This document shows, in pieces, positions 45,708-63,735 of a stretch of 64,000 nucleotides of DNA. The stretch's first letter is position 1; every line of letters begins with the position of its first letter. A program made the position numbers and the translations under genes. The notes under the pieces were generated by a model. That model did not search any database. It was not told the DNA's origin and saw nothing but the letters and a program-made list of their open reading frames with translations. The stretch spans positions 31,712-95,711 of IMG/VR virus record IMGVR_UViG_3300030328_001039; one strand, given 5' to 3'. This stretch comes from a virus.

Positions 45708-48043
45708 CAGACACCACCTACACTTACTTTGACTACCTTAACGACATCAGTAGAAACATTGAGTCGCTTTGCGATTCTCTCCCAGTCACCAGTGGCATAC
45801 GCAATTGAGCGAATATCAACTGGCGTTAGGTCTACACTCTTGGCAAGATGATGAACACCTGATAGGTCTGCAACATTGATTGGTCGAACCAGTGCGTGTT
45901 TCATAATCTTAGAATCAGCACGAGCATCATCCATCTGCATATCCTCCATAGCCTTCATCACTCTATCCATAGGTGAGAGTTCTTGTGATTGTGATTTCAT
46001 GTATTGGGTGAGCAAACGCTGTCGTGGGTCGCCCATTGTTTGTTGATACATTTGCTCTTGAGGGGATAGTTGCATACCTTGTCCTTGAGGTACTCTTGCG
46101 CCAGCCGCTTGTATAATTCTACGGAGAGATGCTGGTTCAGCCACGCCAACATGCCTTCGTGCTGCTACTAACTCAGGGCTTTGCGGTGTAAATGTTGGTG
46201 CTCCCCTTGGGGGTACTGACGGGGTTGAAGCAGCCGCTGGGGGAGCAGCAGCGGCTGGAGGTGGAGATGGGGCGGCAGCAGCAGGTCTTGGTGCTGCTGG
46301 AGCAGAAGGAGGTCTTTCTGTTGCTGGAGCAGTTCTTGAAGTGCTCATACTAGGAGCAAGAGATACATCATTGTAGAATGGAACATGAGCAGGTAGTCTT
46401 TCAACTAATTCATCAGGGTATGTCATGTAACGAGAAGATAGACCACCAGTTGGGAGAGTATCAGGTAATTGTCTACGAGTTTGATGACCAAATGCTTCAC
46501 TTACCAAATCAGCCAAAGCCTCAGTTGCCTGTCTGCGTTGTTCAACAGTTTCGTAACTCTGAAGATTTAATCCCAATCCTTGAATTACGCCAGCGTCAAT
46601 GTTACCTTCGGCATCTCTTGGCATATAGGCTCGTAATGCGCTATCGTGTTCATCATGAGTACCACTCAACATAGCCTTAGCATAGAACTCAGCAGCGTTC
46701 TTATGTGTTCCCAATCCTTGTGTAGTTTTTTGACCATCAAGAGTTTCTAGGTGTTTACCCGGAATAGCGTGTGAGTTTATCGCATCGAATCCAACATCAT
46801 GGTCTTTTCCAAATGCTTGAAGAATATGGTCAAACGCTCTTTTTCCTATACCGGGCTTTGCTGCTGACCCACTGTTAATACGACCAAACAACATATTGAA
46901 TGCTGGAGTTCTTGATAGTTCTTTTAGCATACCTTCAGTAAGAGTTGGTGTCCTCAATACTGTTCTAAGGTTCATCATAGTGTATCTAGGTTTTCCCGTA
47001 GTTCCCGGTGTAGTATTAATTGGAACATCAACATCAGGCACCTTATTAGGGTCAATGACTTTTAACGCCTCAGCGATATGGATTCTAGCACTATCAATAC
47101 CATTACTTAACCCAGTTTGCTGTCGATTACTCATCATGTGCATAAAGTCAGGAGTGTGATTCATAATCTCCCAAGACCGGATTCCAGTATGGGCTGCATC
47201 GTGAACGACACCGGGAGGAGCATTAGTAATGTGGAGACTTGGTAACATATACCCTTCAGAGGTCTGCATAATTTTATCCCCACCTCTACCACGAATACGA
47301 TTACCACGAGGGTGTAAATCCTTAATGTCAATATGAGGATTGTCAATAAACTCAGCACCGACTAAATCTTTCAGCCCAAGTTTTTCTAGTAGTATCTTTT
47401 GTAAATTATGATTGTAAGGAACAGCATATGATTCAATCATAGCACCTACTTTTTCGTTACGGTTTTGACGATTAGTATATGCTGTAATGTAGTCACCACT
47501 TTGAGACACATGAGCACGAGTTGTAGGTTTACGACCACCATAGCCAGCAACACGAATCTTTCGATGTTTTATATCATCAACATCAGGAATATTATGATAC
47601 CCGCTTTTATCTTCATGTTCTGCATTTGTCATATCAATTGCTGTTTGAACAAGATTTTGCGGAGTAAGAACTCCTAACTCCGGGTCATTTTGACCTAGCA
47701 ATCCATTTTTCTCTAATGATTCACCTACAGCATGGAGTACACCATCAATACCGTGGTGATGTGACTCTCCGTTCTCATCTAGGTATACCATCTCACCATG
47801 TTTACCTGTAGCAAACTTACCGGGAATTAACTCACCCATACCGAAGTGTCCTGACGGGTGATGCTTTGCTGCACCATGATGTGCAAAAGCGGGTACATCG
47901 GGAGTATTAGGGTCAGGATGGAATGCTTCGGGAGGAGGAGCAGTCTTTAGATACGGCTCAAGTCGCCCTGTTTCGGGATTAGTGTAGTAACCGTAAACAC
48001 CGTCACCCTTGCGAATAATGGATTTGCGAACTAAGATACTCAA
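45707..48043 (-). CDS. Hypothetical 778-aa protein with Pro/Ala linker and C-terminal HTH-like segment
   Basis: Long ORF with N-terminal SILVRKS and C-terminal WERIAKRLNVSTDVV. Confidence 0.7.
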   Translation of the reverse strand: MSILVRKSIIRKGDGVYGYYTNPETGRLEPYLKTAPPPEAFHPDPNTPDVPAFAHHGAAKHHPSGHFGMGELIPGKFATGKHGEMVYLDENGESHHHGIDGVLHAVGESLEKNGLLGQNDPELGVLTPQNLVQTAIDMTNAEHEDKSGYHNIPDVDDIKHRKIRVAGYGGRKPTTRAHVSQSGDYITAYTNRQNRNEKVGAMIESYAVPYNHNLQKILLEKLGLKDLVGAEFIDNPHIDIKDLHPRGNRIRGRGGDKIMQTSEGYMLPSLHITNAPPGVVHDAAHTGIRSWEIMNHTPDFMHMMSNRQQTGLSNGIDSARIHIAEALKVIDPNKVPDVDVPINTTPGTTGKPRYTMMNLRTVLRTPTLTEGMLKELSRTPAFNMLFGRINSGSAAKPGIGKRAFDHILQAFGKDHDVGFDAINSHAIPGKHLETLDGQKTTQGLGTHKNAAEFYAKAMLSGTHDEHDSALRAYMPRDAEGNIDAGVIQGLGLNLQSYETVEQRRQATEALADLVSEAFGHQTRRQLPDTLPTGGLSSRYMTYPDELVERLPAHVPFYNDVSLAPSMSTSRTAPATERPPSAPAAPRPAAAAPSPPPAAAAPPAAASTPSVPPRGAPTFTPQSPELVAARRHVGVAEPASLRRIIQAAGARVPQGQGMQLSPQEQMYQQTMGDPRQRLLTQYMKSQSQELSPMDRVMKAMEDMQMDDARADSKIMKHALVRPINVADLSGVHHLAKSVDLTPVDIRSIAYATGDWERIAKRLNVSTDVVKVVKVSVGGV

Positions 48044-50883
48044 ACTCGCCCACTCCCTCTACCTACAAGAGCACCGGGGTCAAGCCCAAAATCTCGTGGC
48101 TCATTGTTTGCATCCTCTGTACCACCTTGGTTTCGATTTGTTTGTTTGGGATTATTGGCTGGGTAGTTGGGTAAAGTGCTCGCAGCACCAGCGGTGTCAG
48201 GTTCACCCTTACCTTTCTTTTTACTATCCTTGTCTTTCTTTTCACGCATCAATTCACGAATCTCTTTGAGAGCAATTCGCATCAATGCTGCTTGATATGC
48301 ATTCGCTTTGAGAATATCACTGTGCTGAGGAGTGTCCTCGCTCATTGTTATCATACCCGGCATCTTAGGTCGGACTAAGTGAGGCATCTTCATCTTAGGT
48401 GGTTGAATACTTGGAGCACGAACTGCATGTAGTCGTGGTCTTGGGACACGAGGATATTGTAGAGTGTTTGTCAAACGACCACCACCAGTTTGACCTGATA
48501 TGAATGAGCGTTGGCTATGTCTCATGTGTGGTGTGTATACTGTTCTTACACCGCCCAAGAGTTTACGAGCATCTTGTGAAGCAAGATAAGGTCTGTATTT
48601 TTGAGGGTCTTTAGATGGAGGTTGTTTACTAGCAAGACCTCGGTGTGAAAACTCAACGGAAAGGTGTGGCCTCATTAGCCCAGTTTTACGCCCCATCGGT
48701 AGATTACGACTGATATTTTTAGAGCGTCTTGATGAAATATTCCGAGGGTCGCCACCGCCCTTTGGTTTCTCAAACTGACCAGTAGATGGTCGCCACTTAG
48801 CATAACCCTCTTTCTTGCGTCTACGGGCTACACTACGCTTAGATTCTGATTTTTGGAGGTTTTGTTGTGAAGGATGTTCGCCTCTCGCCATATCAGTTTC
48901 TAAGTATTGGTCATAAACATCTCCTGTTATTTCGTGATACCTCCCACATTTAGGGCAAAATATGTCTACCAATTCTTTAGGGTTATCTTCAGGGCCACGA
49001 TAATGTGCTTCATAACTTCCATCGCATTCTTCTTCAGTATTGTCACAACGAGAACTTGGCCCTTTAGCGGAATAACCAACTGGTATCTGTTTCAACAAAG
49101 ACCAAGCAAAGTCCATAGGACTACTTTTTTTCACACGAGGGTCAGGGACTAATTGACCATTAACAAACGCCATTCCGGGTACTGGTGAATCTTGAATATC
49201 AGGTTCAGGTTCAGGTTCAGGTTCAGTGAATGGGCCGGGTGGTAGCATCTGAGAGGAGTACAATTGTCGATTATAAACAGTTTGAGGGTTCAGTTTAATT
49301 TTTCTAGCGACCTCTCTTAAATCAGCAATTTTATTTTTCTCATCCACAGTAGTGGGTAGTAGAGGTGTTTTATCATCATCCATTTCAGCCCTGTGTCTCA
49401 TCATTTCAGGATGGCTGCTATGTGCATATCGTAGCCATTCAGGAATACCCGCTGCTACATTTCTTTCTGCTCTATCCTCCGCATCTCGTCTTATTTTATG
49501 TGACAAACCTTGCCTCATGTGACCTCCTGAATGTCCTGAAGAAGCCCTTTTTCTATCAATATAACGCTGTGCTTCAATATCAGGATGGTGGTAATCTAAG
49601 GCTTCAGCCTCAGACATTTTGAGTAGTTGCCAAGCCAAGTCCATAGGCTCACCTGCTAGTTTATTTTGCCAATCATCATCAGGTTGCTCTTGCATCTGCG
49701 GCCCTAATAAATTACCAAGATAGTTTGCATGGGTATAGAGTGCGGCAAGATTACCTGCTATATGGGCCATAGGGTGTGCGTTACCTAATTCTTGGGTCAT
49801 CATAGCGTTTTTATGTTGGTCTACTAACCAACTTGGTAATTCATGCCCTCGCCCATCTAAGGTTTCGCTTAAATAAATCAATGAGTTTCTATGTTCCATT
49901 AAAGAGTCCATAGATTCTTGCGCTCCCCAAATATGCCGGTCATTATGCATCTGATTCATCATATCGGGGTCACCATGTATATGATTATCAAATCCTAACC
50001 CCTCCATCATACCCATATCTACCATATTGCTAATCGTAGGCATATCAAAGCCCATTATTTGTTTAAGCCATGTCTCTTTAGGTGTTTTTGATATATCATC
50101 AAAATTAATACGATGGCCTTCTTCCTCTTCCTTTAGTAATTGATAAGCCAAGTCCATAGGCTCACCTGCTAGTTTTTGACTAGAAAGGAAATCCGCAATA
50201 CTTTGTTTAAGTTCCTCTTCTTCTCTCTCTTTGTCAGTAACCGCTGGTTCAGGTTTTTCATAGAAGCCGGGAGATTCTCTAAGTTCTTCAATTTCATCTT
50301 GTAGTTCTTCACCCGCTTCGTTATGCATTATTTCTTTTTCAAACTCAGGGTCAAGATTTTGGCGAGGGTCACGAGGATTACCATCATAGTCATAGTAAAA
50401 CTCTTCATCGTAGAGGTCATCGTCATCGTCATCGTCATCGTATTTCAATAACCGCCAAGCCAAATCCATAGGCTCAGACATCTGAATCATTTGACCCCCA
50501 GCAGCACCCGGCCCTTTTGCTCCCATAGCAAGACTTGTTAGGAATCCACCAGCACCGCTTGGCATAGTTTGGTCTGATGGATTATCAGTAGAACCACGAG
50601 GCTTGAACTTCTCTTCTTCTTCGTCTACATCTTCTGTAGGTTTTTCGCCCTCAAGACCAAGATGATGTGAACGGACTTTGATATGACGGATTTTCTTATC
50701 TTCTTTTTCCTCTCGTTCTCGCTTGGCTTGTTTTTTGTCTCTGCGTCTTTCCTTGCTTTTAGCATCTTCAATACCGCTTGGTGGCCTTTCATCTTCGTGA
50801 TTAGCCCTAAACATTTCAGAGGACTCTGAGCGAGGGTTGTATATCCTCGTATCAGAGGTTCGGCCTTGCATACCCTCCGTCAT
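48040..50883 (-). CDS. Modular polyprotein-like protein with four (E/S)PMDxAW/YxLLK motifs
   Basis: Motifs at 50443-50475, 50131-50163, 49618-49650 and 49090-49122 separate compositionally distinct modules (acidic, His/Met-rich, Zn-finger, basic). Confidence 0.8.
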   Translation of the reverse strand: MTEGMQGRTSDTRIYNPRSESSEMFRANHEDERPPSGIEDAKSKERRRDKKQAKREREEKEDKKIRHIKVRSHHLGLEGEKPTEDVDEEEEKFKPRGSTDNPSDQTMPSGAGGFLTSLAMGAKGPGAAGGQMIQMSEPMDLAWRLLKYDDDDDDDDLYDEEFYYDYDGNPRDPRQNLDPEFEKEIMHNEAGEELQDEIEELRESPGFYEKPEPAVTDKEREEEELKQSIADFLSSQKLAGEPMDLAYQLLKEEEEGHRINFDDISKTPKETWLKQIMGFDMPTISNMVDMGMMEGLGFDNHIHGDPDMMNQMHNDRHIWGAQESMDSLMEHRNSLIYLSETLDGRGHELPSWLVDQHKNAMMTQELGNAHPMAHIAGNLAALYTHANYLGNLLGPQMQEQPDDDWQNKLAGEPMDLAWQLLKMSEAEALDYHHPDIEAQRYIDRKRASSGHSGGHMRQGLSHKIRRDAEDRAERNVAAGIPEWLRYAHSSHPEMMRHRAEMDDDKTPLLPTTVDEKNKIADLREVARKIKLNPQTVYNRQLYSSQMLPPGPFTEPEPEPEPDIQDSPVPGMAFVNGQLVPDPRVKKSSPMDFAWSLLKQIPVGYSAKGPSSRCDNTEEECDGSYEAHYRGPEDNPKELVDIFCPKCGRYHEITGDVYDQYLETDMARGEHPSQQNLQKSESKRSVARRRKKEGYAKWRPSTGQFEKPKGGGDPRNISSRRSKNISRNLPMGRKTGLMRPHLSVEFSHRGLASKQPPSKDPQKYRPYLASQDARKLLGGVRTVYTPHMRHSQRSFISGQTGGGRLTNTLQYPRVPRPRLHAVRAPSIQPPKMKMPHLVRPKMPGMITMSEDTPQHSDILKANAYQAALMRIALKEIRELMREKKDKDSKKKGKGEPDTAGAASTLPNYPANNPKQTNRNQGGTEDANNEPRDFGLDPGALVGRGSGRV

Positions 50884-51281
50884 GTATTATCCCCCATGAT
50901 ATGGTATTCAAAACACTGTCGCAACTTTTCGCTTATTTTTCTATAGAATGACATTATTCTCGGACTATCTTGAAACGCCGAAGTCATGTTTTCCATCGTA
51001 TATTCAAACTCCTCAAGCAAGCGAGGTATAAGATTGTAAGCAGGGAAAAATGTAGTAGGGTTATCATCTTCAAATACGGTTTCAAAAGACTTTGCTAACA
51101 ACTTGAATAAATCAGGTGGTGTGATATTTAGTTCACCATAGTGCTCAAATCTTTCTATGACGCAGCGACAAAAATCAAGATACATCGGTACATGACTTTC
51201 AAAAATAACCAATTCACTATCTACCATTGAATAACCCGGATGGGTCATCTGCAACAAATCAGGCACTGGAACTGGCATCAA
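50880..51281 (-). CDS. Hypothetical protein
   Basis: 4-nt start/stop overlaps with both neighbours. Confidence 0.65.
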   Translation of the reverse strand: MMPVPVPDLLQMTHPGYSMVDSELVIFESHVPMYLDFCRCVIERFEHYGELNITPPDLFKLLAKSFETVFEDDNPTTFFPAYNLIPRLLEEFEYTMENMTSAFQDSPRIMSFYRKISEKLRQCFEYHIMGDNT

Positions 51282-51961
51282 TTCATATCACCTGCGTGCT
51301 CTAATAGTTGTTTACGAACTCTAGCCCAAGATTCAGGACTCTCTTTTCCAAGTTCAAGTTTGAGAATGTTAATTGTGTTGTTAATTTGGTTGTTTTCAGT
51401 TGTAGGACTCCATTGTTCATTCATCTTCAATAAGTCCTTTATTGATTCTCTGACTTCTTTGTGTAGAGAAACTGCGTCTCTAACAAAACCATCTTCATGC
51501 ACGCTACCCTCATTTAGTAACTCAGTTAGTTTAACATTAAGTAATTCAACATTTGACCTAAGCGCATTGATTTCTTCTCCCACCACTAATGTAATTTCAG
51601 CGGCTGCGCTTCTTTGAACTAAAGGTTGAAAGTGATGTTTCATATGATGGTAGACTGATGACTCAGCAATTTCAAGTTCCTCAGCAATAGCCTCGGATTC
51701 AGAGCCATCTTCAAAAAATCTACGCTCAAAATCAGCCCTTTCGGGGTGAGCGCATACTTTGCATTGAGGGTTAGAAGCCATATGATATTGACCCATGTGA
51801 TTACGGAAATGACGGTCAGTTGTGTTGAGCCGCCAGCCCATATCTTTGTCAAGTTGTTTAGGTGATATTTCACCATCAAGCAGACCCTTTTCTAAATCGG
51901 CACGACTAGGATGTTGGCACAAAGGGCAAGACCTTTTTGTGATACCACCACCCTCCGCCAT
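51278..51961 (-). CDS. Tandem Zn-finger/HTH protein, candidate terminase small subunit
   Basis: Two copies of CxxCxHP-x~30-HxxxH enclosing HTH-like helices, then a coiled-coil. Located upstream of terL. Confidence 0.55.
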   Translation of the reverse strand: MAEGGGITKRSCPLCQHPSRADLEKGLLDGEISPKQLDKDMGWRLNTTDRHFRNHMGQYHMASNPQCKVCAHPERADFERRFFEDGSESEAIAEELEIAESSVYHHMKHHFQPLVQRSAAAEITLVVGEEINALRSNVELLNVKLTELLNEGSVHEDGFVRDAVSLHKEVRESIKDLLKMNEQWSPTTENNQINNTINILKLELGKESPESWARVRKQLLEHAGDMN

Positions 51962-52021
51962 GACACGCTTAAAGCAGCATTACCCATAATGCTTTTTCTC
52001 CTGAACCTTTTCGGAGGTATT

Positions 52022-52306
52022 ATGCTGCCACCTTACGAGAGAGTACCGAAACAGCCTCTCAAAAAGCGTGGTAAAGATTTACTTAATGCTTCAAAAGATG
52101 CACTGAAAGGTCGTAGAGTCTCAAAAGAAGAATACATGGAGAGGCTTGATGAGTGTTATCAATGCCCTTACATGCAAAAAAGAATGGGTACTTGCCGACT
52201 GTGCAATTGTGTAATGAAAATTAAGGCACTTGCACCCTCAGTTGGCTGTCCTATAGACAAGTGGTTACCGAGTAATTCGGGAGTAGAGAGTAGTCAGGAA
52301 AACTAA
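52022..52306 (+). CDS. Cys-rich small protein (CxxC...CxxCxC...CPxxKW), DUF6171-like
   Basis: GGAGGT RBS at 52014-52019 before the ATG at 52022. The conserved Cys pattern is common in marine viruses. It is the only convincing plus-strand gene. Confidence 0.75.
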   Translation: MLPPYERVPKQPLKKRGKDLLNASKDALKGRRVSKEEYMERLDECYQCPYMQKRMGTCRLCNCVMKIKALAPSVGCPIDKWLPSNSGVESSQEN

Positions 52307-52516
52307 TCCTCCAAAGATACCCACTACAAATACACTAACATCTCCGCTGCTCATTGAATCTCCCTTGAAAACTAAGATAGATGCACAAGCGATAATGATT
52401 GAAATAAACTGAACCATTATCATTTCTACAATGATGTTTCTGCTTGGAGCAAATATAGTGCTACTTGCTTGACTTATTCTCATGCTGTAATCAGACATAC
52501 TACCTGCTTGAACCAT
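52265..52516 (-). CDS. Small two-TM membrane protein
   Basis: Two hydrophobic helices (IIVEMIMVQFISIIIACASILVF; VSVFVVGIFGGLVFLTTLY). AGGTGA RBS. Confidence 0.75.
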   Translation of the reverse strand: MVQAGSMSDYSMRISQASSTIFAPSRNIIVEMIMVQFISIIIACASILVFKGDSMSSGDVSVFVVGIFGGLVFLTTLYSRITR

Positions 52517-52525
52517 TTTATCACC

Positions 52526-53188
52526 TTAATTTCTTGGTAGTCCTATGAGTCCACGAGCGACACTACCAATTCCGCCACCGACTTTGTTCATCATTCCTTC
52601 ATCTTGTAAAGCAGCACCAAGAGCATTACCCATTAGAGACTGTTGAGCCATATTGAAAATCTGTTGTCTTTGCATTTCAGCATCTTGGAACTTTTGATTA
52701 CTTGTAGCCACCATGTTGTTAAGAATCATACTAACATTTTCTATGCTAAGTGTCTGTAAGTCAGAAGGTAAAGTAGAGGGGTCAAGTTTCATACCGCCTT
52801 CTTCTTCATCAATAACAAATGTAGCATTCTTTAGAATGTTAAGCAAACTTAGGCTTGTAGTAGCAGCAATCAAATCTATTAAAGTCCCAAGCCCTCCGTC
52901 TTTGATAAAACGATGAATTGGATTTTGAGATTGTAGTAAAGCACCCATCAACTCCATTTCGCTTGGAGGAGTGAATTGTTGTTGTTGATACATTTGTTGC
53001 TGTTGCTGATTCATCCCAGCCCCATTCATCAAACCAGCCATTAATCCTTGATTTTGCTGTTGCTGCATAGGTTGTGCTCCAAGAGTAAAGTTGCTTTGTG
53101 GTTGCTGCATTCCGTAGTTTATCCCTCCGCCAGTTGCTGAAAGATTCAACCCACCAGTTTGCTGTTGTTGATTACCAAGACCTAACAT
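52526..53188 (-). CDS. Gln/Gly/Met-rich protein
   Basis: Q-rich low-complexity N-terminus and amphipathic C-terminus. Confidence 0.7.
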   Translation of the reverse strand: MLGLGNQQQQTGGLNLSATGGGINYGMQQPQSNFTLGAQPMQQQQNQGLMAGLMNGAGMNQQQQQMYQQQQFTPPSEMELMGALLQSQNPIHRFIKDGGLGTLIDLIAATTSLSLLNILKNATFVIDEEEGGMKLDPSTLPSDLQTLSIENVSMILNNMVATSNQKFQDAEMQRQQIFNMAQQSLMGNALGAALQDEGMMNKVGGGIGSVARGLIGLPRN

Positions 53189-53192
53189 CGTA

Positions 53193-54131
53193 TCATGCCT
53201 CTCCAGTAACTAATCCACCATCAAGGTTCTGTTGTATTTTGCCATTTTCAGTATTAAGTAATTCTTGAAATGCTTGTGTCGGCATATTCATTTGTTGTAG
53301 TTCCATTTGGAATATACGCAAGTCGAATACAACCATCGTTACATCGTTTTGACCAGTTGCTGGATTTGCATAATGTAGTATATTGATACCTTTTGTTTTA
53401 CCTGCATCTCTTTCTAGTTCAGCAAAGAAAGGCTCATACTTTTGCAGCATAGCAGGTGTTGGGTCACTTTTCTTCACAGATGAAATAGGAACGGTAACAA
53501 TTGATACTCCTCTCTTTACTTTATCACGAAGGCGGCTTGGATTCATCTCATTTTGCTTATCCTCTTCAGCCTCCCACTTTACCAAAAGATGGTAGAGATG
53601 CATATGCTCAGGGCAATATGTTCCTTTGAGTTTACGACCACTGGTTACCTTATCCTGAGCGATGAAGGCTTCAGGCTGGCCTGTAACTGGATTTTGCCAA
53701 TACATTTCCCATAAAGAGCGACCAGTTTCTTCGTCACTAATTTTCATGTAGAGATTGTCATGTTGAATTAAATTAGCACAGTTACAACCGTCTACAACAC
53801 ATGTGCCAGTATCTTTTGCGTATCTGTATTTTCTACCAAACAACCATCTCATAGGATTGAATGCTGAATGCTTTGCTGGTTGAAGTAATTTGTAGGCTTG
53901 CTTGATGTCTTTACGGCGAGCCTTTCTTGGGTCAGGATGACGACTTGGATAAAAATTAACTTTGGGAACTTCAATATTTCCCGATGCTGCTGCTGCCGCT
54001 TGCATACCTTGTTGAGCCATCAACATTTCTTGTAGAGCAGCCTGAGTAAGTTGGTCGTTACCTTGCATAGCCAAAGTTGCTAATTGTGCTTCGTTAAGAT
54101 TCTGTTGTTGATTTCTACTGAAGTTCATCAT
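53193..54131 (-). CDS. Protein with Q-rich N-terminus and Cys/His (CxxxxC...CxxH) Zn-binding motif
   Basis: CVVDGCNC...YCPEH. ATGA overlap with the upstream gene. Confidence 0.7.
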   Translation of the reverse strand: MMNFSRNQQQNLNEAQLATLAMQGNDQLTQAALQEMLMAQQGMQAAAAASGNIEVPKVNFYPSRHPDPRKARRKDIKQAYKLLQPAKHSAFNPMRWLFGRKYRYAKDTGTCVVDGCNCANLIQHDNLYMKISDEETGRSLWEMYWQNPVTGQPEAFIAQDKVTSGRKLKGTYCPEHMHLYHLLVKWEAEEDKQNEMNPSRLRDKVKRGVSIVTVPISSVKKSDPTPAMLQKYEPFFAELERDAGKTKGINILHYANPATGQNDVTMVVFDLRIFQMELQQMNMPTQAFQELLNTENGKIQQNLDGGLVTGEA

Positions 54132-54325
54132 CCTATCACAACCTGTTCAGGCGTAGGGGTCATTACTACAACAATTTGTCCCTCTTGAACTACAAACCTC
54201 CAATGAACATCATCACCAGCATTTAACCCAAAATGCTCAACTATCCACATAGGAACTGTGGTTCTAAGACTACGGCTACCACCGCCAGTAGATACCAATG
54301 TTGTTGAAGAGTTCTTACCTGACAT
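54128..54325 (-). CDS. AbrB/MazE/SpoVT-family DNA-binding protein
   Basis: SLRTTVPMWIVEHFGLNAGDDVHW fits the AbrB swapped-hairpin consensus. GGTGAGG RBS before the ATG at 54325. Confidence 0.8.
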   Translation of the reverse strand: MSGKNSSTTLVSTGGGSRSLRTTVPMWIVEHFGLNAGDDVHWRFVVQEGQIVVVMTPTPEQVVIG

Positions 54326-54380
54326 ATCCTCACCGAAAGAGTTGTTATTCAAAAGGCTACCTATGGGGTCATTTTTTGGG

Positions 54381-55103: not shown

Positions 55104-55109
55104 AGAACA

Positions 55110-55367
55110 TCAATCCCACCATTTTAGCCAAATAACAAGTTGCTCTAACTTATTAACAGTCCACTCTACAGTATTTTCATAAACACTGAAACTGTTATTA
55201 TGAAACTCAATACCACTGATAACTAAGGCTGTGATAAGGGATGCAAGAACAGTTTTTATCCAACCCCATGTTCTTTCGTAGGCATTATCCACAGTGTTGG
55301 CTATGTGAATAGCACGAAGGGTACTCTCAGTTGCATCGTCAGAAGGTGTACGAAAGATTCGACCCAT
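55110..55367 (-). CDS. Small membrane protein
   Basis: TM segment WGWIKTVLASLITALVISGIEF and an aromatic C-terminus. GTGAGGA RBS. Confidence 0.7.
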   Translation of the reverse strand: MGRIFRTPSDDATESTLRAIHIANTVDNAYERTWGWIKTVLASLITALVISGIEFHNNSFSVYENTVEWTVNKLEQLVIWLKWWD

Positions 55368-55376
55368 TCATATTCC

Positions 55377-55994
55377 TCACTCTTTCTTTTGATACCTTTT
55401 GTCAGGAGTGCCGTCTTTCTTCAGTGGTACTTCTTCATCTATACCAAGAGTAAGTGGTTGTCGGATTTTTGCCTCGTGAGTGGGAATACGACTACTATCA
55501 AAGACTGAAGAACCTCCGCCCCTATTATCAAATGAGCCAATCATAGATGGTGAGCCACCTGTTACTCCCCAACTTGGGGGCATCTGACCGGGGTTTTCCT
55601 CCATCCAGCGAAGTTCACGCTCAAGTTGCGCTTCTTGCATTCGCATTTCCATTTCAGCCCTACGGTTATCAAACTGTTGCTGCATCACACGGTATTGGTG
55701 GCTTCTTTGTTTCTCAATGTTACCATGCCGTACTTTTTCTTGTAGATTTTGCTCAAAGAACATTTTGAAAAAGTAGTAAGCAATACCTTGCATAAAGAAA
55801 GCACCCATAGCATAGGTGAATCCATTTACCCAAACGCTGTCTTGACGCAACCAAACCTCTGCATCAAAGATACCGATTGCTACTCCAACAAGTGTGCTTT
55901 GGGCTAAAATCAATCCCATTAGCCTAATTTCTGCTTCGTGATGGTCAGTTGAATCCATAGTGTCCACTGGTATGTCCACTCCGGGGGTCACCAT
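55377..55994 (-). CDS. Two-TM membrane protein with coiled coil
   Basis: Two hydrophobic helices, then a Q/E/R coiled coil. The C-terminal LKKDGTPDKRY is a short basic motif. Confidence 0.75.
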   Translation of the reverse strand: MVTPGVDIPVDTMDSTDHHEAEIRLMGLILAQSTLVGVAIGIFDAEVWLRQDSVWVNGFTYAMGAFFMQGIAYYFFKMFFEQNLQEKVRHGNIEKQRSHQYRVMQQQFDNRRAEMEMRMQEAQLERELRWMEENPGQMPPSWGVTGGSPSMIGSFDNRGGGSSVFDSSRIPTHEAKIRQPLTLGIDEEVPLKKDGTPDKRYQKKE

Positions 55995-56010
55995 AAAGGT
56001 TGCTGGGGCT

Positions 56011-56096
56011 GTTGTCCGAGTTGTCCGTTGTATTGTTTATACATTTTACAAGAATATATTATTTGTCTATATCAGACATTAGACAAGTCGGACAAC
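56011..56096. promoter_or_regulatory. AT-rich intergenic promoter region bracketed by 15-bp inverted repeat
   Basis: gttgtccgagttgtc (56011-56025) vs gacaagtcggacaac (56082-56096), 14/15 complementary, with an AT-rich core. Confidence 0.6.
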
Positions 56097-57983
56097 TTAG
56101 AATGGATAAGGGTGCGTCAATTCTTTTCTATCTTCGCCACCCTCTTCTTGTTTGTAGTCATCTAACGATGTAAGAAGAGCCTGTGCTATCTTTTTGTCTT
56201 GCTCATCCATTGGCCCATTCATAAGATTTCTTAACAATTCTAAATCGCCTTTGAGTCCTTTTGTTAGAGGGCGTTTTGTACCTTTCTCTCGGAAATGTCG
56301 TGCTCGGTTATCGTGCTCATCTTCTACTGTCAATTTACCACCTTCGGTATGGGAAATGTCACGGTGAGAGTGGTCACCGTACATACCACGCTTTCGTCTT
56401 TCTCTATTCAACTCTTCTCGGTATTTGATTCGCTCAGGCGATGACTCATACTTTGTGTCATATTCTTTTTTATGACGCTTTGCTTCAGGAGACTTACGCT
56501 CTTTACGAACTACACCAATATCTGTCATACTAACACCACTTTTTTTGACTTTTTCGGGATAGTGGTAAAGGAATACAGGCACTGATGTATCACCATGCCC
56601 CATTTGTCTTAGAGCCTCCATACGATGACCACCATCTTGTTCTCCAGTAAACTCATTATTTCGGAAATATAAAGAAGGCATACCGATTGGTTTTCCTTCT
56701 TTAATACCCTCCATAATACGGTCTATATTTTCACGACTGCCCCCCCACGGAGAAAACTTCATTCCATCCCATCTATATTTTGCTTCTTTACCGGGTATGG
56801 GCGGTGCTGTGAATAATCCTCTATCTACTCCACCTTCTTTTTCAGCAAGGGCTTGAATAACATCAAAGTATTCATTAGGAGTCATTTGACCAATTTGGGT
56901 CTTACTATTTAGGTCACCGCCACCCATACCTTCACCGTCAAAATCTGTAAAATACGGTTGAGTGCCAATAGTAGGTTCAGGATAATTATGAGGATGAATC
57001 CATTTTTCATTGTAACCCATACGGACACCGGGAATGTCAGTGTCTATTATAGGCATTTTGAGTAATCGCATAGCAATTTCCATTGGTTCACTTCGTACAA
57101 TAGCAGGGTGTCTACTTGCTAAATCTTGTGCTACTTGTTCGCCTGACATGAAAGACGGGTAAAAATCAGGACTTGGTGTATGACCGACTTGCGCTCTTAT
57201 TGCACCGTATTCATCCCAGTTTGTAAAATCTTGAGGAGTAGGATTGTTACCGGCTAATATCTGCTCTCTAAATGCTTCAGACAAAGGTACTTTTTGTGCT
57301 TCGTGCATAGCCTCATGCGTAGCAGTTTGTCCCATGTGGTCTATGAGTTTACGCTCTTGTGTTTCTTCATCATCACCCAATTGACCTAAACCTAATCTTC
57401 GCCCGTATTCGCTAAGGTTAATTCCCCTAAAGGGCATATCTTTGCTTTGACCCCCCCAAGCAGATTGCATGTTCCATGACATAGGTGAAATCATACTACC
57501 CATCTCTTGATGACCTCCTGTTGCTGCACGAGTTTTCGCATCTGCAATCATTATAGGTTCGTCTATTGTTGGGTCTAAAGCCCATTCATGCCCTTCTTTT
57601 CTTGCTTGTTGTAGTCCTTTTGGGTCTGTGTCACCAAAATAAAAAGATGCTTTGAGTAATCGCATAGCAATTTCCATTGGCTCGCCTGTCATTATATCTT
57701 GAAACTCAGGAGTAAACTTTGTTTCATTTCTAAACATTGATTGCTGGCTAAGTGGGTGCTCATCAGGTAGAGGGAAATAATCTTGGTCACGCTCTCTTAT
57801 CTTTGACTCCCGTATAAGTTCATCGAGCACATTACTTAGTTGTTCACCATTAATAGGTAAAGATAACATACTTCTAGGAATGTGTTTATCTAATAACCTC
57901 ATCGTTTTATCCGAATTAGGATTCAACATTTCTGATAAATCTTGCATAGGTATCATAGCAAAAGGGCGAGCCTCTTCAGGCAT
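56097..57983 (-). CDS. Modular protein: two EPMEIAMRLLK motifs, HExxH module, ParB/Srx-like module, HNH-like basic module
   Basis: Motifs at 57651-57683 and 57057-57089, HEAMH at 57303-57317, DGGHRMEAL at about 56610-56636. Confidence 0.8.
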   Translation of the reverse strand: MPEEARPFAMIPMQDLSEMLNPNSDKTMRLLDKHIPRSMLSLPINGEQLSNVLDELIRESKIRERDQDYFPLPDEHPLSQQSMFRNETKFTPEFQDIMTGEPMEIAMRLLKASFYFGDTDPKGLQQARKEGHEWALDPTIDEPIMIADAKTRAATGGHQEMGSMISPMSWNMQSAWGGQSKDMPFRGINLSEYGRRLGLGQLGDDEETQERKLIDHMGQTATHEAMHEAQKVPLSEAFREQILAGNNPTPQDFTNWDEYGAIRAQVGHTPSPDFYPSFMSGEQVAQDLASRHPAIVRSEPMEIAMRLLKMPIIDTDIPGVRMGYNEKWIHPHNYPEPTIGTQPYFTDFDGEGMGGGDLNSKTQIGQMTPNEYFDVIQALAEKEGGVDRGLFTAPPIPGKEAKYRWDGMKFSPWGGSRENIDRIMEGIKEGKPIGMPSLYFRNNEFTGEQDGGHRMEALRQMGHGDTSVPVFLYHYPEKVKKSGVSMTDIGVVRKERKSPEAKRHKKEYDTKYESSPERIKYREELNRERRKRGMYGDHSHRDISHTEGGKLTVEDEHDNRARHFREKGTKRPLTKGLKGDLELLRNLMNGPMDEQDKKIAQALLTSLDDYKQEEGGEDRKELTHPYPF

Positions 57984-57984
57984 T

Positions 57985-60720
57985 TTACATCACACCTATT
58001 GATTTTGGGAAATTATAATCATTCAAAACTAGAGCCGAATTGTTTCTACTTGCTTCTGTTGCTTGTTGCATAAAGTCATCAGCCCAAGTAGCACCATCTC
58101 TCATTGGTGAGCCAAATATTTGTTTTTCTCGCTCATTGTCTCCTATTTTGCGAGTGTAAGTACCCGGTGCTGTTTCGGTTTCACGCAAAGGTCTGTTTAC
58201 CAATTCTCTAATATGGTCATAGTCCGTAATAGGTTGCATACCTTGTTTGTCAAAGATTCTAGGCCATGCTCCACTGACTTCTATGTAATGACCCGGTATC
58301 TGCATATGCTCCGTCATATGGTCTACAGTGGCACGCTTTGCTGCTGTTTGTCCATCATGTGCTGTTATGGAGGCTTTGAATCCCTGCTCTTGTTGAGAAA
58401 ATACTCTTGCTGCGTCTACATATGGGTCTTGGTCATTGTCAATCATATCATACCGAGCGTGCTTGCCTTCATTTTTCAAATCATTACCATCGCTGTATTT
58501 ATCGTGACCACCCACTGGTTTGTAAGCGATATTCATAGCATTCGCTACTTCATCATATAATTGAGGTCGTGCATCCATCCCCTCTTTTGGTAAACTCACC
58601 CATGAATCTTTGATACCAAAATACTCATTGAAGTTTCTCGGAGAAGGTGCGTGCATATCTGTTTGACTTTCCCATTTCAACAACTGCATAGCAATCTCCA
58701 TTGGTTCGCTTGCTACTTTACGAGCACCACCTCTCTTGTCACGGAGCGTTTCATCCATATCAAGCCCAAGTTCTTCAGCCTTCTCTCTAACTTTACGCAT
58801 GGCTATTTCTGCTGGTACTCTTTCTTCACTAAAAGCCTCAAAGCCTTCGCCTTCAGGAGATGTGAATTGTCCAGTGAGTGCTCGGAATCCAGCATCACCA
58901 ATTGTTGTATTCCAATCACGATTGTATTCTGACTCTTGTATAGGTAGACCAATCTCTTCCATCAATTTTCTTTGATTACCTAAAGCACGAGTTTCCCAAT
59001 CTATCGCTCTTAGCATTTCACGAGGAGTTCTTTGTCCTAATTTACCAAGCCTACGACCCTCTCCCCATTCTGCGTTCAAATCTTCAAGACCTTGTGCGTG
59101 CCCAAGTTCATGCAGTTTTCTCCAATTATCAGTGAATGGTTTGTTAGCGCCAAATGAAGTCGCTGCAACTCCGGGGTCAAAAATAGCAAGATGACCTGTA
59201 TTGTAGTTCTTCTTATCTAAATCGGGATTAGGGTATTCACCACCGAAGTAATATGGTTCGTAACCATAACTTGCTAACAACTCATTTACTTGAGGTGACA
59301 TTTCTGCTAATTCAGATGAGTAAGGTTGTACTGGTTTATCCACCATATCAAGATTCTGTTTACCATAGTGCCTCATAACATCCCAAAAGCGTGGGTCATT
59401 TCTTGGAGCGTGCTGTCCGCTAACATCAATCGCTTCTTTCAACAACTGAAAGGCGATGTCCATTGGTTCACTGGCTAACTTCTTCCATTGTGAAGGGTCA
59501 ATAGCGTGCGCTCTAAATCCTAATTCACTTCCCGGCTCGCCATAATTAAGTCCTTCAACCATAGAGGCTCTATCGTGCCATGTGTCCAGTAAATCACCGG
59601 GGTCAATCCCCTGCGCTATCGCATAATCAAATAATTCATTTGTTTTGGTTTTAAGGTGTTCATCAGCCTCATCGTTCCATAGTTGCTCGTGAGGGGCAAG
59701 TTCCATTTGATTCTCATAATCTATTTGTTCTTTCAACAACTGATAAGCGATGCCCATTGGTTCACTGCGAGTGAAGTATTTCTTAGGGTCAGCATCAGGT
59801 GTATCTAGTGATAATCCTTCAAATGTACCCTCTCTTGTAAATGGATGAACTCTCCTTTGTATTCCTTGACTAGCGTTAGGGGGCGTTAATTTAGTCGGTA
59901 ATTGAATTGGCCCACCGCCCGGTGGCTGAGTAAATGGTACTTTTTCTTTCAGACCCATTGGTACATTTTCTGTATTCTCAGCCATGTTGGGGTCTGCTTG
60001 TCGCCCCTTGATTCTTTTCGCTCTTTCTCTTAGTGCCTCGACATAATCTTCTTGAGGCATTTTGAACTTACGAGGGTCGGGAACTTCATCATCTTCTTCT
60101 TTGAGTAACCGCCAAGCGAGGTTCATTGGTTCACCAGTTTGTACCGATGCACCACGGCGAGCCATTTCCATAGCACGCTGCTCTTGCGCTTGTTTTCTCT
60201 GAGCATTTTGTGCTTGCATTTGTCCGGCTAACTGCATACCGACTTTTTTGTAATCAGTTTTGTTACCACCAGCACCACTTGGCTCTTCAGGTTCAGGTAT
60301 TTCAGCCGCTGGTTCAGCAGCAGGTGATTCAGGTAAAGGTACGCTGTCTGTTCCATCACTTGCTTTGGGTAAACTCGGCTTAGGTGCAGCAGACTCCACT
60401 GCTTCAGCAGCACTAGCCATGCCTTCAGCAGCACCTGCTGCCTCTGTTGCAGCACCGCCACCTTTGACACCGACTTTCGCTTTGATGTTCTTCAGTCCAC
60501 CGCCGAGAGCGACCTTCAATCCTGTGCCTAGTTTACCTAAACCAGTTTTCATAGCACCTCTAACGCCCTGCGTGGCTACTGCATTAGCAGCACCTTGAGC
60601 GCCTACACGAGTAAGAAGTCCTACTAATGGTGCCCACTTTTCAATATCATCAAAATTGAAAAACTTATGAATGTCATCGGGAGAATCCCACGGCACAAAG
60701 TCGTAGTTTTCACTCGGCAT
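57985..60720 (-). CDS. Modular protein with four EPMxxAxxLLK motifs and an HExxH module
   Basis: Motifs at 60100-60132, 59731-59763, 59437-59469 and 58675-58707. HELGH at 59098-59112. Confidence 0.8.
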   Translation of the reverse strand: MPSENYDFVPWDSPDDIHKFFNFDDIEKWAPLVGLLTRVGAQGAANAVATQGVRGAMKTGLGKLGTGLKVALGGGLKNIKAKVGVKGGGAATEAAGAAEGMASAAEAVESAAPKPSLPKASDGTDSVPLPESPAAEPAAEIPEPEEPSGAGGNKTDYKKVGMQLAGQMQAQNAQRKQAQEQRAMEMARRGASVQTGEPMNLAWRLLKEEDDEVPDPRKFKMPQEDYVEALRERAKRIKGRQADPNMAENTENVPMGLKEKVPFTQPPGGGPIQLPTKLTPPNASQGIQRRVHPFTREGTFEGLSLDTPDADPKKYFTRSEPMGIAYQLLKEQIDYENQMELAPHEQLWNDEADEHLKTKTNELFDYAIAQGIDPGDLLDTWHDRASMVEGLNYGEPGSELGFRAHAIDPSQWKKLASEPMDIAFQLLKEAIDVSGQHAPRNDPRFWDVMRHYGKQNLDMVDKPVQPYSSELAEMSPQVNELLASYGYEPYYFGGEYPNPDLDKKNYNTGHLAIFDPGVAATSFGANKPFTDNWRKLHELGHAQGLEDLNAEWGEGRRLGKLGQRTPREMLRAIDWETRALGNQRKLMEEIGLPIQESEYNRDWNTTIGDAGFRALTGQFTSPEGEGFEAFSEERVPAEIAMRKVREKAEELGLDMDETLRDKRGGARKVASEPMEIAMQLLKWESQTDMHAPSPRNFNEYFGIKDSWVSLPKEGMDARPQLYDEVANAMNIAYKPVGGHDKYSDGNDLKNEGKHARYDMIDNDQDPYVDAARVFSQQEQGFKASITAHDGQTAAKRATVDHMTEHMQIPGHYIEVSGAWPRIFDKQGMQPITDYDHIRELVNRPLRETETAPGTYTRKIGDNEREKQIFGSPMRDGATWADDFMQQATEASRNNSALVLNDYNFPKSIGVM

Positions 60721-60780
60721 TATCTAATGCCAAAGCGTGGCTAGACAAAAGCATATCGCTTATCAAGCGACATCAAGAGT

Positions 60781-61629
60781 TTACTGAAGATTCTCGTAAT
60801 CTATACGAGGAGCAAACTGGTCACCGTATGCGCCTTGTGGTGCTGATGGTGCGCCATAGAACTCATAGCCTCTACTCGCAAATCGTCTATCCGCTTGCAG
60901 TTTAGGCTCACCTACCGCTGGCTGGCCTTGATGTAAGTATGCAGTTTTATTGTAAGGTGTTTGTCCTTTTATGTTTGAAAGACTTGGATTGCGGTCAGGC
61001 GGGGTATGAGTTTGTATTTGAGTGTTACCGGGATATGGGCCGGGTCGTGGTATACGAGTTACTTCAGCCCCCGGTGCTGCTTCTACACCCAATATACCTT
61101 CATGTGGGCGTCTTGTGTTTTCTTGAACATCCATTGTTTGAGGCCCACCAGTAGTTGTATCACCAGTTGGTTTCATTCTACCAAAAAACCCTGTTGGTTG
61201 CATTTCAGGAACTTGAGGGCGTTGAGCCATAGATGCGACTGATGGAGGCATATTGTATTCTGTTCCGTCTTGCATTCCAATTACATTCTTCTTGAGTGTA
61301 TTCCAAGCCTTCATCATTGGATGCTCAGGTGGTGCTCGACCACCAGCCATAGCACCCAAAGAGCCACCTTCGCCAATTGGCCCTCCATGTGCTAACATAG
61401 GTGAAGTGCGTGACTGAGCACTCATAATACGAGTTATATGTTCATACATGTCCTCAGCCGCTTGTCGCTTTGCTGGGTCAGGTGAGTTTTCATTGTCAAG
61501 AACAAACTGCCTCATCTGTTGTAGTTGTATCATTTCTTCGGCCTTACCTTTACGGAGCAGTGCGTCATATGTCATATCAAACATGTGTTCGTTTTTCAAT
61601 ATGTAAAAGGCTTCAGCGAATGCGCTCAT
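60781..61629 (-). CDS. Hypothetical protein with two degenerate tag motifs
   Basis: AFAEAFYILK at the N-terminus and PMMKAWNTLK internally. Confidence 0.7.
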   Translation of the reverse strand: MSAFAEAFYILKNEHMFDMTYDALLRKGKAEEMIQLQQMRQFVLDNENSPDPAKRQAAEDMYEHITRIMSAQSRTSPMLAHGGPIGEGGSLGAMAGGRAPPEHPMMKAWNTLKKNVIGMQDGTEYNMPPSVASMAQRPQVPEMQPTGFFGRMKPTGDTTTGGPQTMDVQENTRRPHEGILGVEAAPGAEVTRIPRPGPYPGNTQIQTHTPPDRNPSLSNIKGQTPYNKTAYLHQGQPAVGEPKLQADRRFASRGYEFYGAPSAPQGAYGDQFAPRIDYENLQ

Positions 61630-61671
61630 GTTTCATCCGATGATGTTGCTTGATAAAAGCCTAGTGGTCTT

Positions 61672-62790
61672 TCAAGTTCTGTTTAAGGAATCTAACATAA
61701 ATCTGTAACGCCTTGCGTGTTCATCATCACCAAACTCATACAAGCGTTTTTGCTCAGGGGGAGTATTCATCCATTGCAGAGCATTACCTGCTGCTCTATA
61801 ATTATCACGACCCTGACCAATTGCCATTTCTAATTGCTCTCTTTGAGTTGGGTTTGGTTCATATTCACCAAATGCAGAAGGGTTGTCAAGCAATTTTTGC
61901 TCGGCAGCATCCCAAGGCTTGAACTGCTCTTGGTCGTGATATAATTGAGTAAACGAGTCAAGTTGCATTGGGTCTACATCTTTGAAGTCTTGATACAGTT
62001 CCCTCGCTCTTCTTCTTCGTCTTAGGGCGTGCGTGTTACCGGGCTGTCTTGCATGTTCACCATAGTTTTCTGATGCAGGGCCTTTTTGACTCTGCCATAC
62101 CGGTTGAGCCGCTGAATGTAATGTTCGCCCAAAGTTTTCAATCTGCCTAAAGTTACCTACAAAGGGGTCAATTGCTACAAGTTTTCCGTCTTTGTAGCCT
62201 ACATTTTCATCATTTTGTATTATGTCGCCTAAATCTAACGCCAGTCCTAGTGGAGATTCAAGAACTGCCTCTCTATCAAGGGCTCTTAGGTCATTACCGA
62301 AAGCCCTTTTATGCTCTTTCCAATCTTCTAGTGATTCATGCATATTAAAAGGTTCAAGATAATCTCTGAAACTCATATCTACTTTCTCTTGCTCTGTTGG
62401 GAAAAAGCGAGGGTTATTTGTAGCAATAGGTCTTTCAGGGAGAATAGGATAACCAAGTGAAGCAAGTGCATTTATCATAGCCAATGAAGTTTTATCTTGT
62501 GCATAACCATAATTTTGAGGTATTTTTTCTACAGTCTTGTCACCAACTAACGCATATCGGTTCGCCCCATGACCTATTTTTCCCGACCTATCACCTCTCC
62601 AATCTCTTAGAATCTGTGGTAAATGTCGCTCTTCAACTTCGTCTCGCCCACCGTAGTCATCTTCTCCCCAATCATCCATTAGTATGGGTGTATACGCCCG
62701 GTCAAAATAAGTGCGTGGGTCATTTCTTGAAGGATGCAATTTAGGAGTGCGATTCTTTAGCACTTGGTAGGCTTTCTCAAAAGGTAACAC
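61672..62790 (-). CDS. Protein kinase-like fold protein with N-terminal degenerate tag (PFEKAYQVLK)
   Basis: IGHGANR (Gly loop), VEK (beta-3 Lys), D-IIQND-EN (catalytic loop) and VAIDP (DFG-equivalent). Confidence 0.55.
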   Translation of the reverse strand: MLPFEKAYQVLKNRTPKLHPSRNDPRTYFDRAYTPILMDDWGEDDYGGRDEVEERHLPQILRDWRGDRSGKIGHGANRYALVGDKTVEKIPQNYGYAQDKTSLAMINALASLGYPILPERPIATNNPRFFPTEQEKVDMSFRDYLEPFNMHESLEDWKEHKRAFGNDLRALDREAVLESPLGLALDLGDIIQNDENVGYKDGKLVAIDPFVGNFRQIENFGRTLHSAAQPVWQSQKGPASENYGEHARQPGNTHALRRRRRARELYQDFKDVDPMQLDSFTQLYHDQEQFKPWDAAEQKLLDNPSAFGEYEPNPTQREQLEMAIGQGRDNYRAAGNALQWMNTPPEQKRLYEFGDDEHARRYRFMLDSLNRT

Positions 62791-62796
62791 ATTAAA

Positions 62797-63735
62797 TCAG
62801 CCTCTTGGGTGAGAAAATCTATGACTGTGAGTACCATGTTTCATTCTTCCTTCTTTTACACCAAATGGGCTTCCCGGTGCAGCCCTGTTAGGGTTGTGAG
62901 AAATCTCTTCAGAGTTTTTGTTACCGAAGAATTGTCCACCGCTGTCATGCATTCTTCGGTTGAACTCCGGGCCTTGAGCGATGCTCATTCCAGCCTCACC
63001 GTATGCATCTTCAGGGAAACTACTAAATCGCTTTCTATCAGACTGTATTCTTGTATCAGCATCTCTACCCAAATCCAAGTTTAAGTTTGGTGACATACCG
63101 TAATGTTGGTGGTAGTCATCAGTTCTTCGCTGTAGCATACCAAGAATAGCAGGGTGAACAGTTCCCATTGAGCGAGCACCGTAGCGGTCAATCTCAGGTT
63201 TGTCATAATGGTCATCGTAACCATCTTCACCTGCGTTTTCACGAGGAGTGCGCTCTACGAACATTTGCTGCTCAGGTAGTGCTTTCAAAAACTCCCATGC
63301 CTTCTTCATAGGAATATGAAACTCGTCTGCTAGGTTTTGTATGTCACCTTCTTTGAGTCTACCCATTGGGTTACCACTAACAGTGACTGGTTTAATTGGC
63401 TGAGGTTGGTCTCCCATCTGTTCTTCTATGTAATCCATCATCTCAAGAGAAGGCTCAGGTGCTGGGCGTTCAGGCTCTATGGTAGGGTCAGGTAGACTGC
63501 TCATCCTTGGGCCACCCGGCCCACTGAATGGGAACTGTCCGGGGTTTAAGTTGCGTAGAGGTTGGCTTTCAGGCATAGGTAGTGGGTGTTCAACCTGACC
63601 ACCAAAGCGTGCCTTCATTCGCTGCATGTTATTGTAATGGCGCATTTGCTCCTCAGATAACCCCTCATCCATGTGGTGAGGCGAGGGCTGCAAAGCCTTC
63701 AAGAAGGAGAATGCGGTAGCAAAAGCGTCAGCCAT
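62797..63735 (-). CDS. Hypothetical protein with two degenerate tag motifs
   Basis: AFATAFSFLK at the N-terminus and PMKKAWEFLK internally. Confidence 0.7.
   Translation of the reverse strand: MADAFATAFSFLKALQPSPHHMDEGLSEEQMRHYNNMQRMKARFGGQVEHPLPMPESQPLRNLNPGQFPFSGPGGPRMSSLPDPTIEPERPAPEPSLEMMDYIEEQMGDQPQPIKPVTVSGNPMGRLKEGDIQNLADEFHIPMKKAWEFLKALPEQQMFVERTPRENAGEDGYDDHYDKPEIDRYGARSMGTVHPAILGMLQRRTDDYHQHYGMSPNLNLDLGRDADTRIQSDRKRFSSFPEDAYGEAGMSIAQGPEFNRRMHDSGGQFFGNKNSEEISHNPNRAAPGSPFGVKEGRMKHGTHSHRFSHPRG

Follow-up and report, generated by a model that had tools for sequence, protein, structure and literature searches.

The internal proteins of phage T4 have one conserved part, the capsid-targeting sequence (CTS), by which they are loaded into the scaffolding core and which is then removed (PMC3012670). 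Magroviruses infect marine group II archaea and count among the most abundant archaeal viruses of the surface ocean (PMC5434244). The present analysis concerns a short peptide tag, [ES]PMxxA[WYFM]xLLK in its strict form, which recurs in the proteins of a magrovirus genome (IMG/VR record IMGVR_UViG_3300030328_001039, 95.7 kb). The DNA analysed (the window) is the right-hand 64 kb of this genome (64,000 nucleotides, positions 31,712 to 95,711 of the record), and coordinates refer to the window unless indicated otherwise. The best reading, for which the chances are judged to be even, is that the tag directs proteins into the capsid, as the phage T4 sequence does, and that it ends in a site for the prohead protease.

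Like the T4 CTS (carried by the internal proteins IPI-III and removed by the prohead protease gp21), the magrovirus tag is a short peptide that alone is conserved on diverse proteins encoded with the head genes; the CTS ends in a prohead protease site, and the tag in a matching candidate site. No sequence relation was seen between the two peptides. The magrovirus protease belongs to family S78 (HK97 type, PF04586) and not to the T4 gp21 family, its predicted cut is after Lys whereas that of T4 is after Glu, and, unlike the CTS, the tag also stands within proteins (as many as six times in one protein) and at C-termini, and the virus infects an archaeon.

In phage P1, a reporter is directed to the capsid by the first 30 residues of DarB, and the large, multi-domain Dar proteins are packaged into the head via an N-terminal signal (PMC9024508); the N-terminal magrovirus tags would be a parallel. 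The pairing of a ParB/sulfiredoxin (Srx)-like domain with an HExxH motif in a tagged protein of 628 amino acids (aa) recalls P1 DdrB, which has a ParB-like domain and a zincin-like peptidase (PMC5512222). For the 628-aa protein, the ParB/Srx fold class alone is supported (Z 6.5 to Osa), not homology to DdrB. We know of no tag common to all Dar proteins.

The polyvalent proteins of Iyer, Burroughs, Anand, de Souza and Aravind (2017) carry two to fifteen unrelated domains per polypeptide, and their proteolytic release has been proposed (PMC5512222). The tagged proteins share several features with them, namely multiple unrelated, effector-type domains in one late-gene protein, rapidly shuffled architectures and a location among late or virion genes. 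Keyword look-ups in the same paper turned up no universal junction peptide (PMC5512222). Magrovirus modules differ in being separated by one conserved tag, which also heads stand-alone genes. Encapsulin cargo-loading peptides and microcompartment encapsulation peptides are likewise short and terminal (helical in microcompartments) and direct diverse enzymes into a protein shell, which in encapsulins has the HK97 fold. These systems differ from the magrovirus tag in being cellular, with one terminal peptide per cargo and without a protease step.

Occurrence and conservation of the tag

Ten strict copies were found in minus-strand translation of the window, exactly where the sequence-only reading had placed them, together with the five looser copies that it had listed; strict, intermediate and loose patterns gave 0 matches in 50 shuffles of the window. 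The 15 copies are spread over six minus-strand open reading frames (ORFs), and the whole 95.7-kb genome has no others. The strict copies are carried by a 947-aa five-module protein (48040..50883; tags at 50443-50475, 50131-50163, 49618-49650 and 49090-49122), a 911-aa five-module protein (57985..60720; tags at 60100-60132, 59731-59763, 59437-59469 and 58675-58707) and the 628-aa protein, which has three modules (56097..57983; tags at 57651-57683 and 57057-57089, identical at 32 of 33 nucleotides (nt)). The loose copies belong to a 312-aa ORF (62797..63735; N-terminal tag AFATAFSFLK at 63697-63726, internal tag PMKKAWEFLK at 63283-63312), a 372-aa ORF without a Pfam match (61672..62790; N-terminal tag PFEKAYQVLK at 62755-62784) and a 282-aa ORF (60781..61629; N-terminal tag at 61594-61623, internal tag at 61291-61320), and three of them start at residues 3-4 of their ORFs.

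By a DNA repeat search, the 33-nt tag unit was recovered as nine copies at 67-97% identity. Copies within a gene had been described as near-identical at the DNA level, and each of the two 30-nt strings quoted for this was indeed found exactly twice (49633/50146 and 57057/57651). Comparison of the ten strict copies gave 145 codon pairs that differ synonymously and 134 that differ non-synonymously. The conserved object is therefore the peptide and not the DNA alone, and it is the peptide on which selection acts. High confidence is placed in the motif being a tag that is portable, that serves docking or processing and that is under selection at the protein level. The sequence after each copy had been called unrelated to the others; this is mostly so, with partial exceptions in that BLAST families are shared between the halves of the 282-aa protein and between two segments of the 947-aa protein. 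The 778-aa protein that adjoins the 947-aa gene (45707-48043) has in its C-terminal part the string LSPMDRVMKAME, which resembles a decayed tag (SPMD is retained; A-W and LLK are gone).

A degenerate DNA pattern for E-P-M-x-x-A-W-x-L-L-K was used to search IMG/VR and identified 58 loci, which were then re-scanned with a looser peptide pattern. Together with the window, these loci contain 225 tag copies: 76 N-terminal (1-6 residues after the start codon), 136 internal and 13 C-terminal (1-6 residues before the stop codon). The N-terminal copies have the consensus M-x-[PA]-F-[DE]-x-A-W-x-[LVI]-L-K; the internal and C-terminal copies have [IKF]-x-[TAK]-[GS]-E-P-M-[DEN]-[ILM]-A-[WMFY]-[RQ]-L-L-K. 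The ending is not forced by the search: EPM[DEN][ILMF]A[WYFM] is followed by xLLK in 94 of 96 contexts, and LLK was found in 234 of 242. Most tagged ORFs of the loci (132 of 169) carry a single tag, and the 76 N-terminal tags head proteins of many BLAST families, so that a short peptide is common to otherwise unrelated proteins. Among homologues of the 628-aa protein in a collection of 5.8 billion proteins, 106 of 107 carry one to six tags. About one fifth of the internal tags have an additional conserved [FW]-Q-[DNQ] 7-8 residues upstream of E-P-M (as in EFQDIMTGEPM and DWQNKLAGEPM).

The same DNA pattern gave 19 matches in 596 Gb of prokaryote genomes, as compared with about 17 expected by chance (own calculation), and these matches are single and atypical, with the exception of one contig. 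This marine contig, NZQM01000026.1 (L146/L150, 16.4 kb, filed as a Parvibaculum sp. metagenome-assembled genome), has five tags and modules like those of the window, and is almost certainly a magrovirus fragment that was placed in a bacterial bin.

The major capsid proteins (MCPs) of four tagged records are 75-84% identical to that of the window by genome protein search (71-73% for G004 and G003 when measured again by tblastn). Two 84-kb relatives (G005 and G006), the MCPs of which are about 47% identical to the window MCP, have no tag at all and share with the window only MCP, protease domain and portal. Since the tag is present in records with a close MCP and absent from the 84-kb relatives, it is an innovation of this magrovirus lineage, in which MCP identity is about 71% or higher. 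All tags of three genomes are on the strand of the structural genes (15 in G000, 14 in G004, 12 in G003), and in the complete and more divergent genome G004 five tagged ORFs are directly downstream of the MCP gene (C1:30733-35164). At the corresponding position, the window has untagged head-completion genes.

A full-text literature search for the motif strings returned no paper that mentions the tag, and the magrovirus papers examined are likewise silent; it thus appears to be unpublished. A likeness to the p53 transactivation helix and the ESCRT MIM1 motif was noted and dropped as an analogy only.

Cassette turnover at the tags

All tagged ORFs were cut at their tags and the pieces were clustered into 41 module families, which recur in varied orders and numbers; an ORF has at most seven segments. 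Proteins with one to four tags can have the ParB-like module as their last one, and this module also occurs as a stand-alone gene of 171-177 aa with an N-terminal tag; the HELGH module of the 911-aa protein follows the same pattern. One and the same cargo can thus be preceded by an N-terminal tag in a gene of its own or by an internal tag in a fusion.

Comparison of close relatives places the breakpoints at the tags. In locus L013, the MCP of which is 98% identical to that of the window, homology to the 911-aa gene is interrupted from 59724 (just past tag 2) to 58704 (within tag 4); the intervening stretch holds a different module, in place of modules 3 and 4. L004 lacks these two modules and has one tag where the window has tags 2 to 4. 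From the 628-aa gene, L013 is missing 57090-57650 (the middle module, with HEAMH), and the single tag that it retains can be aligned to both window tags. A graded series is seen for the 947-aa gene: one tag with two modules in five relatives, two of the four window tags in L017, three in L020 and all four in the window, along with an 82-residue zinc-ribbon insert that starts directly after tag 4. The earlier proposals that the motif is a portable junction or terminal tag rather than a structural repeat, and that modules between tags vary while the tags stay conserved, are supported by these data: near-identical genomes gain, lose and replace cassettes with breakpoints in the tags. This is also in keeping with the proposal that the tags serve as recombination junctions. 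Met is in excess after internal tags (13% versus a background of 4.3%; p = 4e-5), in agreement with repeated fusion of adjacent genes. The turnover of cassettes at the tags offers a clear case from nature of domains being shuffled via a conserved linker.

The modules themselves are mostly unannotated. Pfam and PHROGs searches with the six whole tagged proteins of the window returned only phrog_6437 (unknown function), in the 628-aa protein, and a Pfam search with eight window modules gave no match; among 147 tagged ORFs from the loci, the Pfam domains found were NUDIX, HD, SLOG, GNAT, DprA-like and several domains of unknown function (DUF). The AlphaFold2 (AF2) model of the 628-aa protein has a low overall quality (pLDDT 61), with both tags modelled as helices and residues 306-478 (56550..57068, DGGHR motif) modelled confidently. 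Structural comparison of this domain supports, for the model, the ParB/sulfiredoxin fold class (Osa: VIA Z 6.5, root-mean-square deviation (rmsd) 3.5, 117 aligned; sulfiredoxins: Z 4.1-4.9; several ParB N-domains: Z 3-4). A tblastn search of the ParB-like part against phages gave only short matches to hypothetical proteins of cyanophages. For module 4 of the 911-aa protein (58708..59436), which is the HELGH (HExxH) domain, the AF2 model has a pLDDT of 87, and its best VIA neighbour is the plasmid antirestriction protein ArdC, a weak match (Z 4.9, rmsd 8.6, 135 aligned). Foldseek searches against the PDB gave no clear match for either model. Most spacers between tags are acidic (isoelectric point (pI) 4.1-6.5); the last module of the 947-aa protein is basic (pI 10.0, net charge +25). 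Another basic module, of about 75 residues (phrog_6437; DUF5872 in relatives; KSPEAKRHK...NRARHF), corresponds to 56400-56620 (residues 496-567 of the 628-aa protein). At the C-terminus of most database homologues it follows directly on a tag, the core of which is about 85 residues from the end; in the window no tag precedes the module.

Head proteins and the proposed function of the tag

The pattern in which the tag ends, hydrophobic-x-Lys, is also conserved in the head proteins. Close MCP homologues (at least 81% identity) were uninformative on the cleavage site, and diverse representatives were used instead: among 121 relatives with 31-56% identity, the MCP family has a conserved N-terminal helix, a linker of variable length, the sequence hydrophobic-x-K|[AST]-D-[AD]-P and a conserved body. 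In the window MCP (28943-30127, minus strand; HK97 fold, by profile search), the predicted propeptide boundary is LLK37|ADAP (30017-30025). The prohead protease is an S78 enzyme fused to a long, scaffold-like C-terminal extension (30154-31542, minus strand; PF04586 Peptidase_S78, E = 2.9e-10, and PF14550). In the scaffold part of this ORF, 65 relatives have a variable linker and [IL]-x-K|[SA], followed after about 15 residues by a conserved, Trp-containing tail helix; the site in the window is IAK|S (30256-30264), which precedes the tail helix MTWEEVHQLA. A coiled-coil-like protein of 115 aa (37919-38266, minus strand) has the same layout, with ALLK|S (38018-38026) and then the tail helix LMSWEEIHEMA. 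The ends of the two proteins (30178-30264 and 37922-38026) can be written jointly as [IL]xK|S, a linker of about 13-17 residues and the tail helix hMSWEEVHxLA, and this shared tail is probably a capsid-binding tail that is cut off by the protease. At the N-terminus of the protease, [LIV][LI]K[GAS] (LLK|G in the window, 31501-31509) stands at the end of an otherwise variable leader.

Thus the virus encodes an S78 protease, and a hydrophobic-x-K|small pattern is common to the MCP family, the scaffold and the 115-aa protein; the tag ending matches both the MCP propeptide boundary and the sites before the tails of the two scaffold-type proteins. HK97 itself cuts its MCP after Lys103, and the hydrophobic-x-K positions of the head proteins are where a prohead protease would be expected to cut. 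A literature search found no paper giving the mature N-termini of halovirus MCPs, and none with details of the HK97 site. After N-terminal tags, the next residue is Ala, Gly, Ser or Thr in 53% of cases, as compared with a background of 26% (p = 1e-6).

A mechanism consistent with these data would run as follows. The tag would form an amphipathic helix of some 11-16 residues, borne by many unrelated modules, several of them enzyme-like, that are encoded on the late (structural) strand. This helix would dock the cargo onto the scaffold or the inner shell face while the procapsid is being assembled, and its last three residues (hydrophobic-L-K) would offer the S78 protease the same site as that predicted on the MCP and the scaffold tails. 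Like the T4 CTS, N-terminal tags would next be removed, internal tags might be cut, freeing modules and leaving the tag on the upstream fragment, and C-terminal tags would be retained as anchors. In the genome, the tag, being the only sequence common to the modules, serves as the junction at which cassettes are inserted, deleted, swapped, fused or split. The parts of this scheme are not equally probable. A role in packaging into the head is favoured slightly; cleavage of N-terminal tags after LLK by the S78 protease, as judged from sequence patterns, may or may not occur with about the same probability; and cleavage at internal tags, the weakest step, is less likely than at N-terminal tags. 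The cargo repertoire (ParB/Srx-like, HExxH, NUDIX, HD, SLOG and GNAT) resembles that of phage polyvalent and internal head proteins (PMC5512222) and of the P1 Dar proteins, which are packaged in the head (PMC9024508).

Several points weigh against this scheme. We infer docking, cleavage, packaging and delivery of the tagged proteins, and location on the late strand is not proof of packaging. Thirteen tags lie 1-6 residues from C-termini, where a cut after LLK would release nothing; the tag must therefore be more than a cleavage site. After internal tags, small residues are not enriched (27% versus a background of 26%), which makes polyprotein cleavage the least supported step, and the residue found there is often Glu or Met, unlike at the head-protein sites. 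Nor would a tag of strongly helical character be an evident substrate for a protease. In the protease itself, the LLK near the N-terminus may simply belong to the first strand of the fold, and LLK does not stand out in the MCP and the 1826-aa protein encoded between portal and protease, since the N-terminal regions of both are conserved throughout among the close relatives examined. No receptor for the tag was found among the head proteins. Comparing tagged genomes with G005 and G006, which lack the tag, brought the receptor no closer because these relatives share only MCP, protease domain and portal, and a complex prediction that paired the full MCP (128 alignment rows) with a tag segment of 40 residues (72 rows) gave 0.00 against a mark of 0.32, which was counted neither way for binding. 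The sequence-only reading had proposed procapsid docking, cleavage after LLK, and release of small effectors from polyproteins and their injection. Its portable junction holds, as does the variation of modules between conserved tags, and the tag ending does match the hydrophobic-x-K pattern of the head proteins; the C-terminal tags and the unenriched residues after internal tags require its revision.

Among the alternatives, the one that fares best, though it is considered unlikely, is that the tag is a docking helix for a hub outside the capsid, that is, a host protein or a viral factor in the cytoplasm by which many late proteins are gathered, stabilised or regulated without proteolysis. The tag does look like a helical short linear motif (hydrophobic residues at i, i+4 and i+7; an Asp-Arg pair), it is independent of position (N-terminal, internal or C-terminal), the residues after internal tags do not resemble the head-protein sites, and no receptor was found among the head proteins. 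Against it, the invariant hydrophobic-L-K ending coincides with the conserved site pattern of MCP and scaffold, every tag is on the structural strand, with some adjoining the MCP gene, and the cargo repertoire is like that of known packaged proteins; the motif is moreover absent from cellular genomes, so that it does not mimic a host motif.

A role of the tags as processing sites or handles for the embedded HExxH (zincin-like) modules, with self-processing in place of the prohead protease, is improbable. Two window proteins do contain such modules (HEAMH in the middle module of the 628-aa protein, HELGH in the 911-aa protein), the best neighbour of the latter is ArdC, the C-terminal part of which is the peptidase of polyvalent proteins, and autoprocessing of phage and plasmid polyvalent proteins has been proposed by Iyer et al. 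(PMC5512222). Most tagged ORFs, including many small proteins with an N-terminal tag, are however without an HExxH module, L013 lacks the HEAMH cassette and retains the tag, and the ArdC match is as weak as described above, with none from Foldseek.

Equally improbable is that the tags are self-associating stickers, with sticky helices and acidic spacers condensing the cargo into an inner body or core for shell assembly, for which a receptor would be optional. Up to six tags per protein, the acidity of most spacers and the related Trp-containing helix on the scaffold tails would suit this model, but single tags prevail in the tagged ORFs of the loci, and the model overlaps with packaging rather than excluding it. 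Finally, a DNA-level repeat (a recombination or regulatory site) with an incidental peptide is already disfavoured and very improbable, for although the 33-nt unit occurs nine times with cassette breakpoints inside it, copies in different genes are only 67-82% identical and yet keep frame and residues through many synonymous changes, and the same peptide is retained in hundreds of divergent proteins.

Capsid targeting in the manner of T4 can be extended to the tentative proposal, rated somewhat below even chances, that one helical tag, at N-termini, at C-termini or repeated within polyproteins, is a general packaging code by which fast-changing enzymes are loaded into an HK97-type capsid, and that the tag is read by the S78 protease, which would release the enzymes for delivery into the archaeal host. 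If true, no earlier capsid-targeting system would be known from an archaeal virus, and none in which the tag doubles as a junction for cassette exchange; capsid-targeting peptides with protease release would have arisen independently in an archaeal virus of HK97 type. Most magrovirus proteins are unannotated, and one recognisable tag would mark a whole class of them as candidate virion cargo, and would give a handle on the takeover of the uncultured Poseidoniales hosts. Foreign proteins might also be loaded into HK97-fold shells with the tag, which is a ready candidate for this use.

Source genome and structural arm

By ORF calling and profile searches, the window was identified as the structural arm of a tailed virus, on the minus strand throughout. 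Profile searches assigned the large terminase (TerL; 42895-44379, minus strand), the portal (38669-40465, minus strand) and, within the arm, a tape measure protein (minus strand); the tagged genes are upstream of TerL. Between terminase and portal is a 410-aa ORF (40462-41694) with an HNH endonuclease-like match (phrog_5046, E = 1.6e-8). The 1826-aa protein (31587-37067, minus strand) has a weak match, below the cut-off, to ATP-dependent ligase (PF01068, E = 1.4e-4). The published magrovirus signature combines head genes like those of haloviruses, a genome size near 100 kb and a ligase inside the structural module (PMC5434244), and the genome was assigned to the magroviruses because its ligase-like match in the structural module, its size and its halovirus-like head genes agree with this signature.

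The distal end of the arm is taken up by a giant ORF of 6068 aa (874-19080, minus strand), homologues of which in G003 and G004 have 41-45% identity over the best alignment of 1,240-1,250 residues. Within its C-terminal 110 residues, the portal has a terminal stretch of low complexity with GGMPP and QMMQGGRMPP repeats, the length of which differs among relatives.

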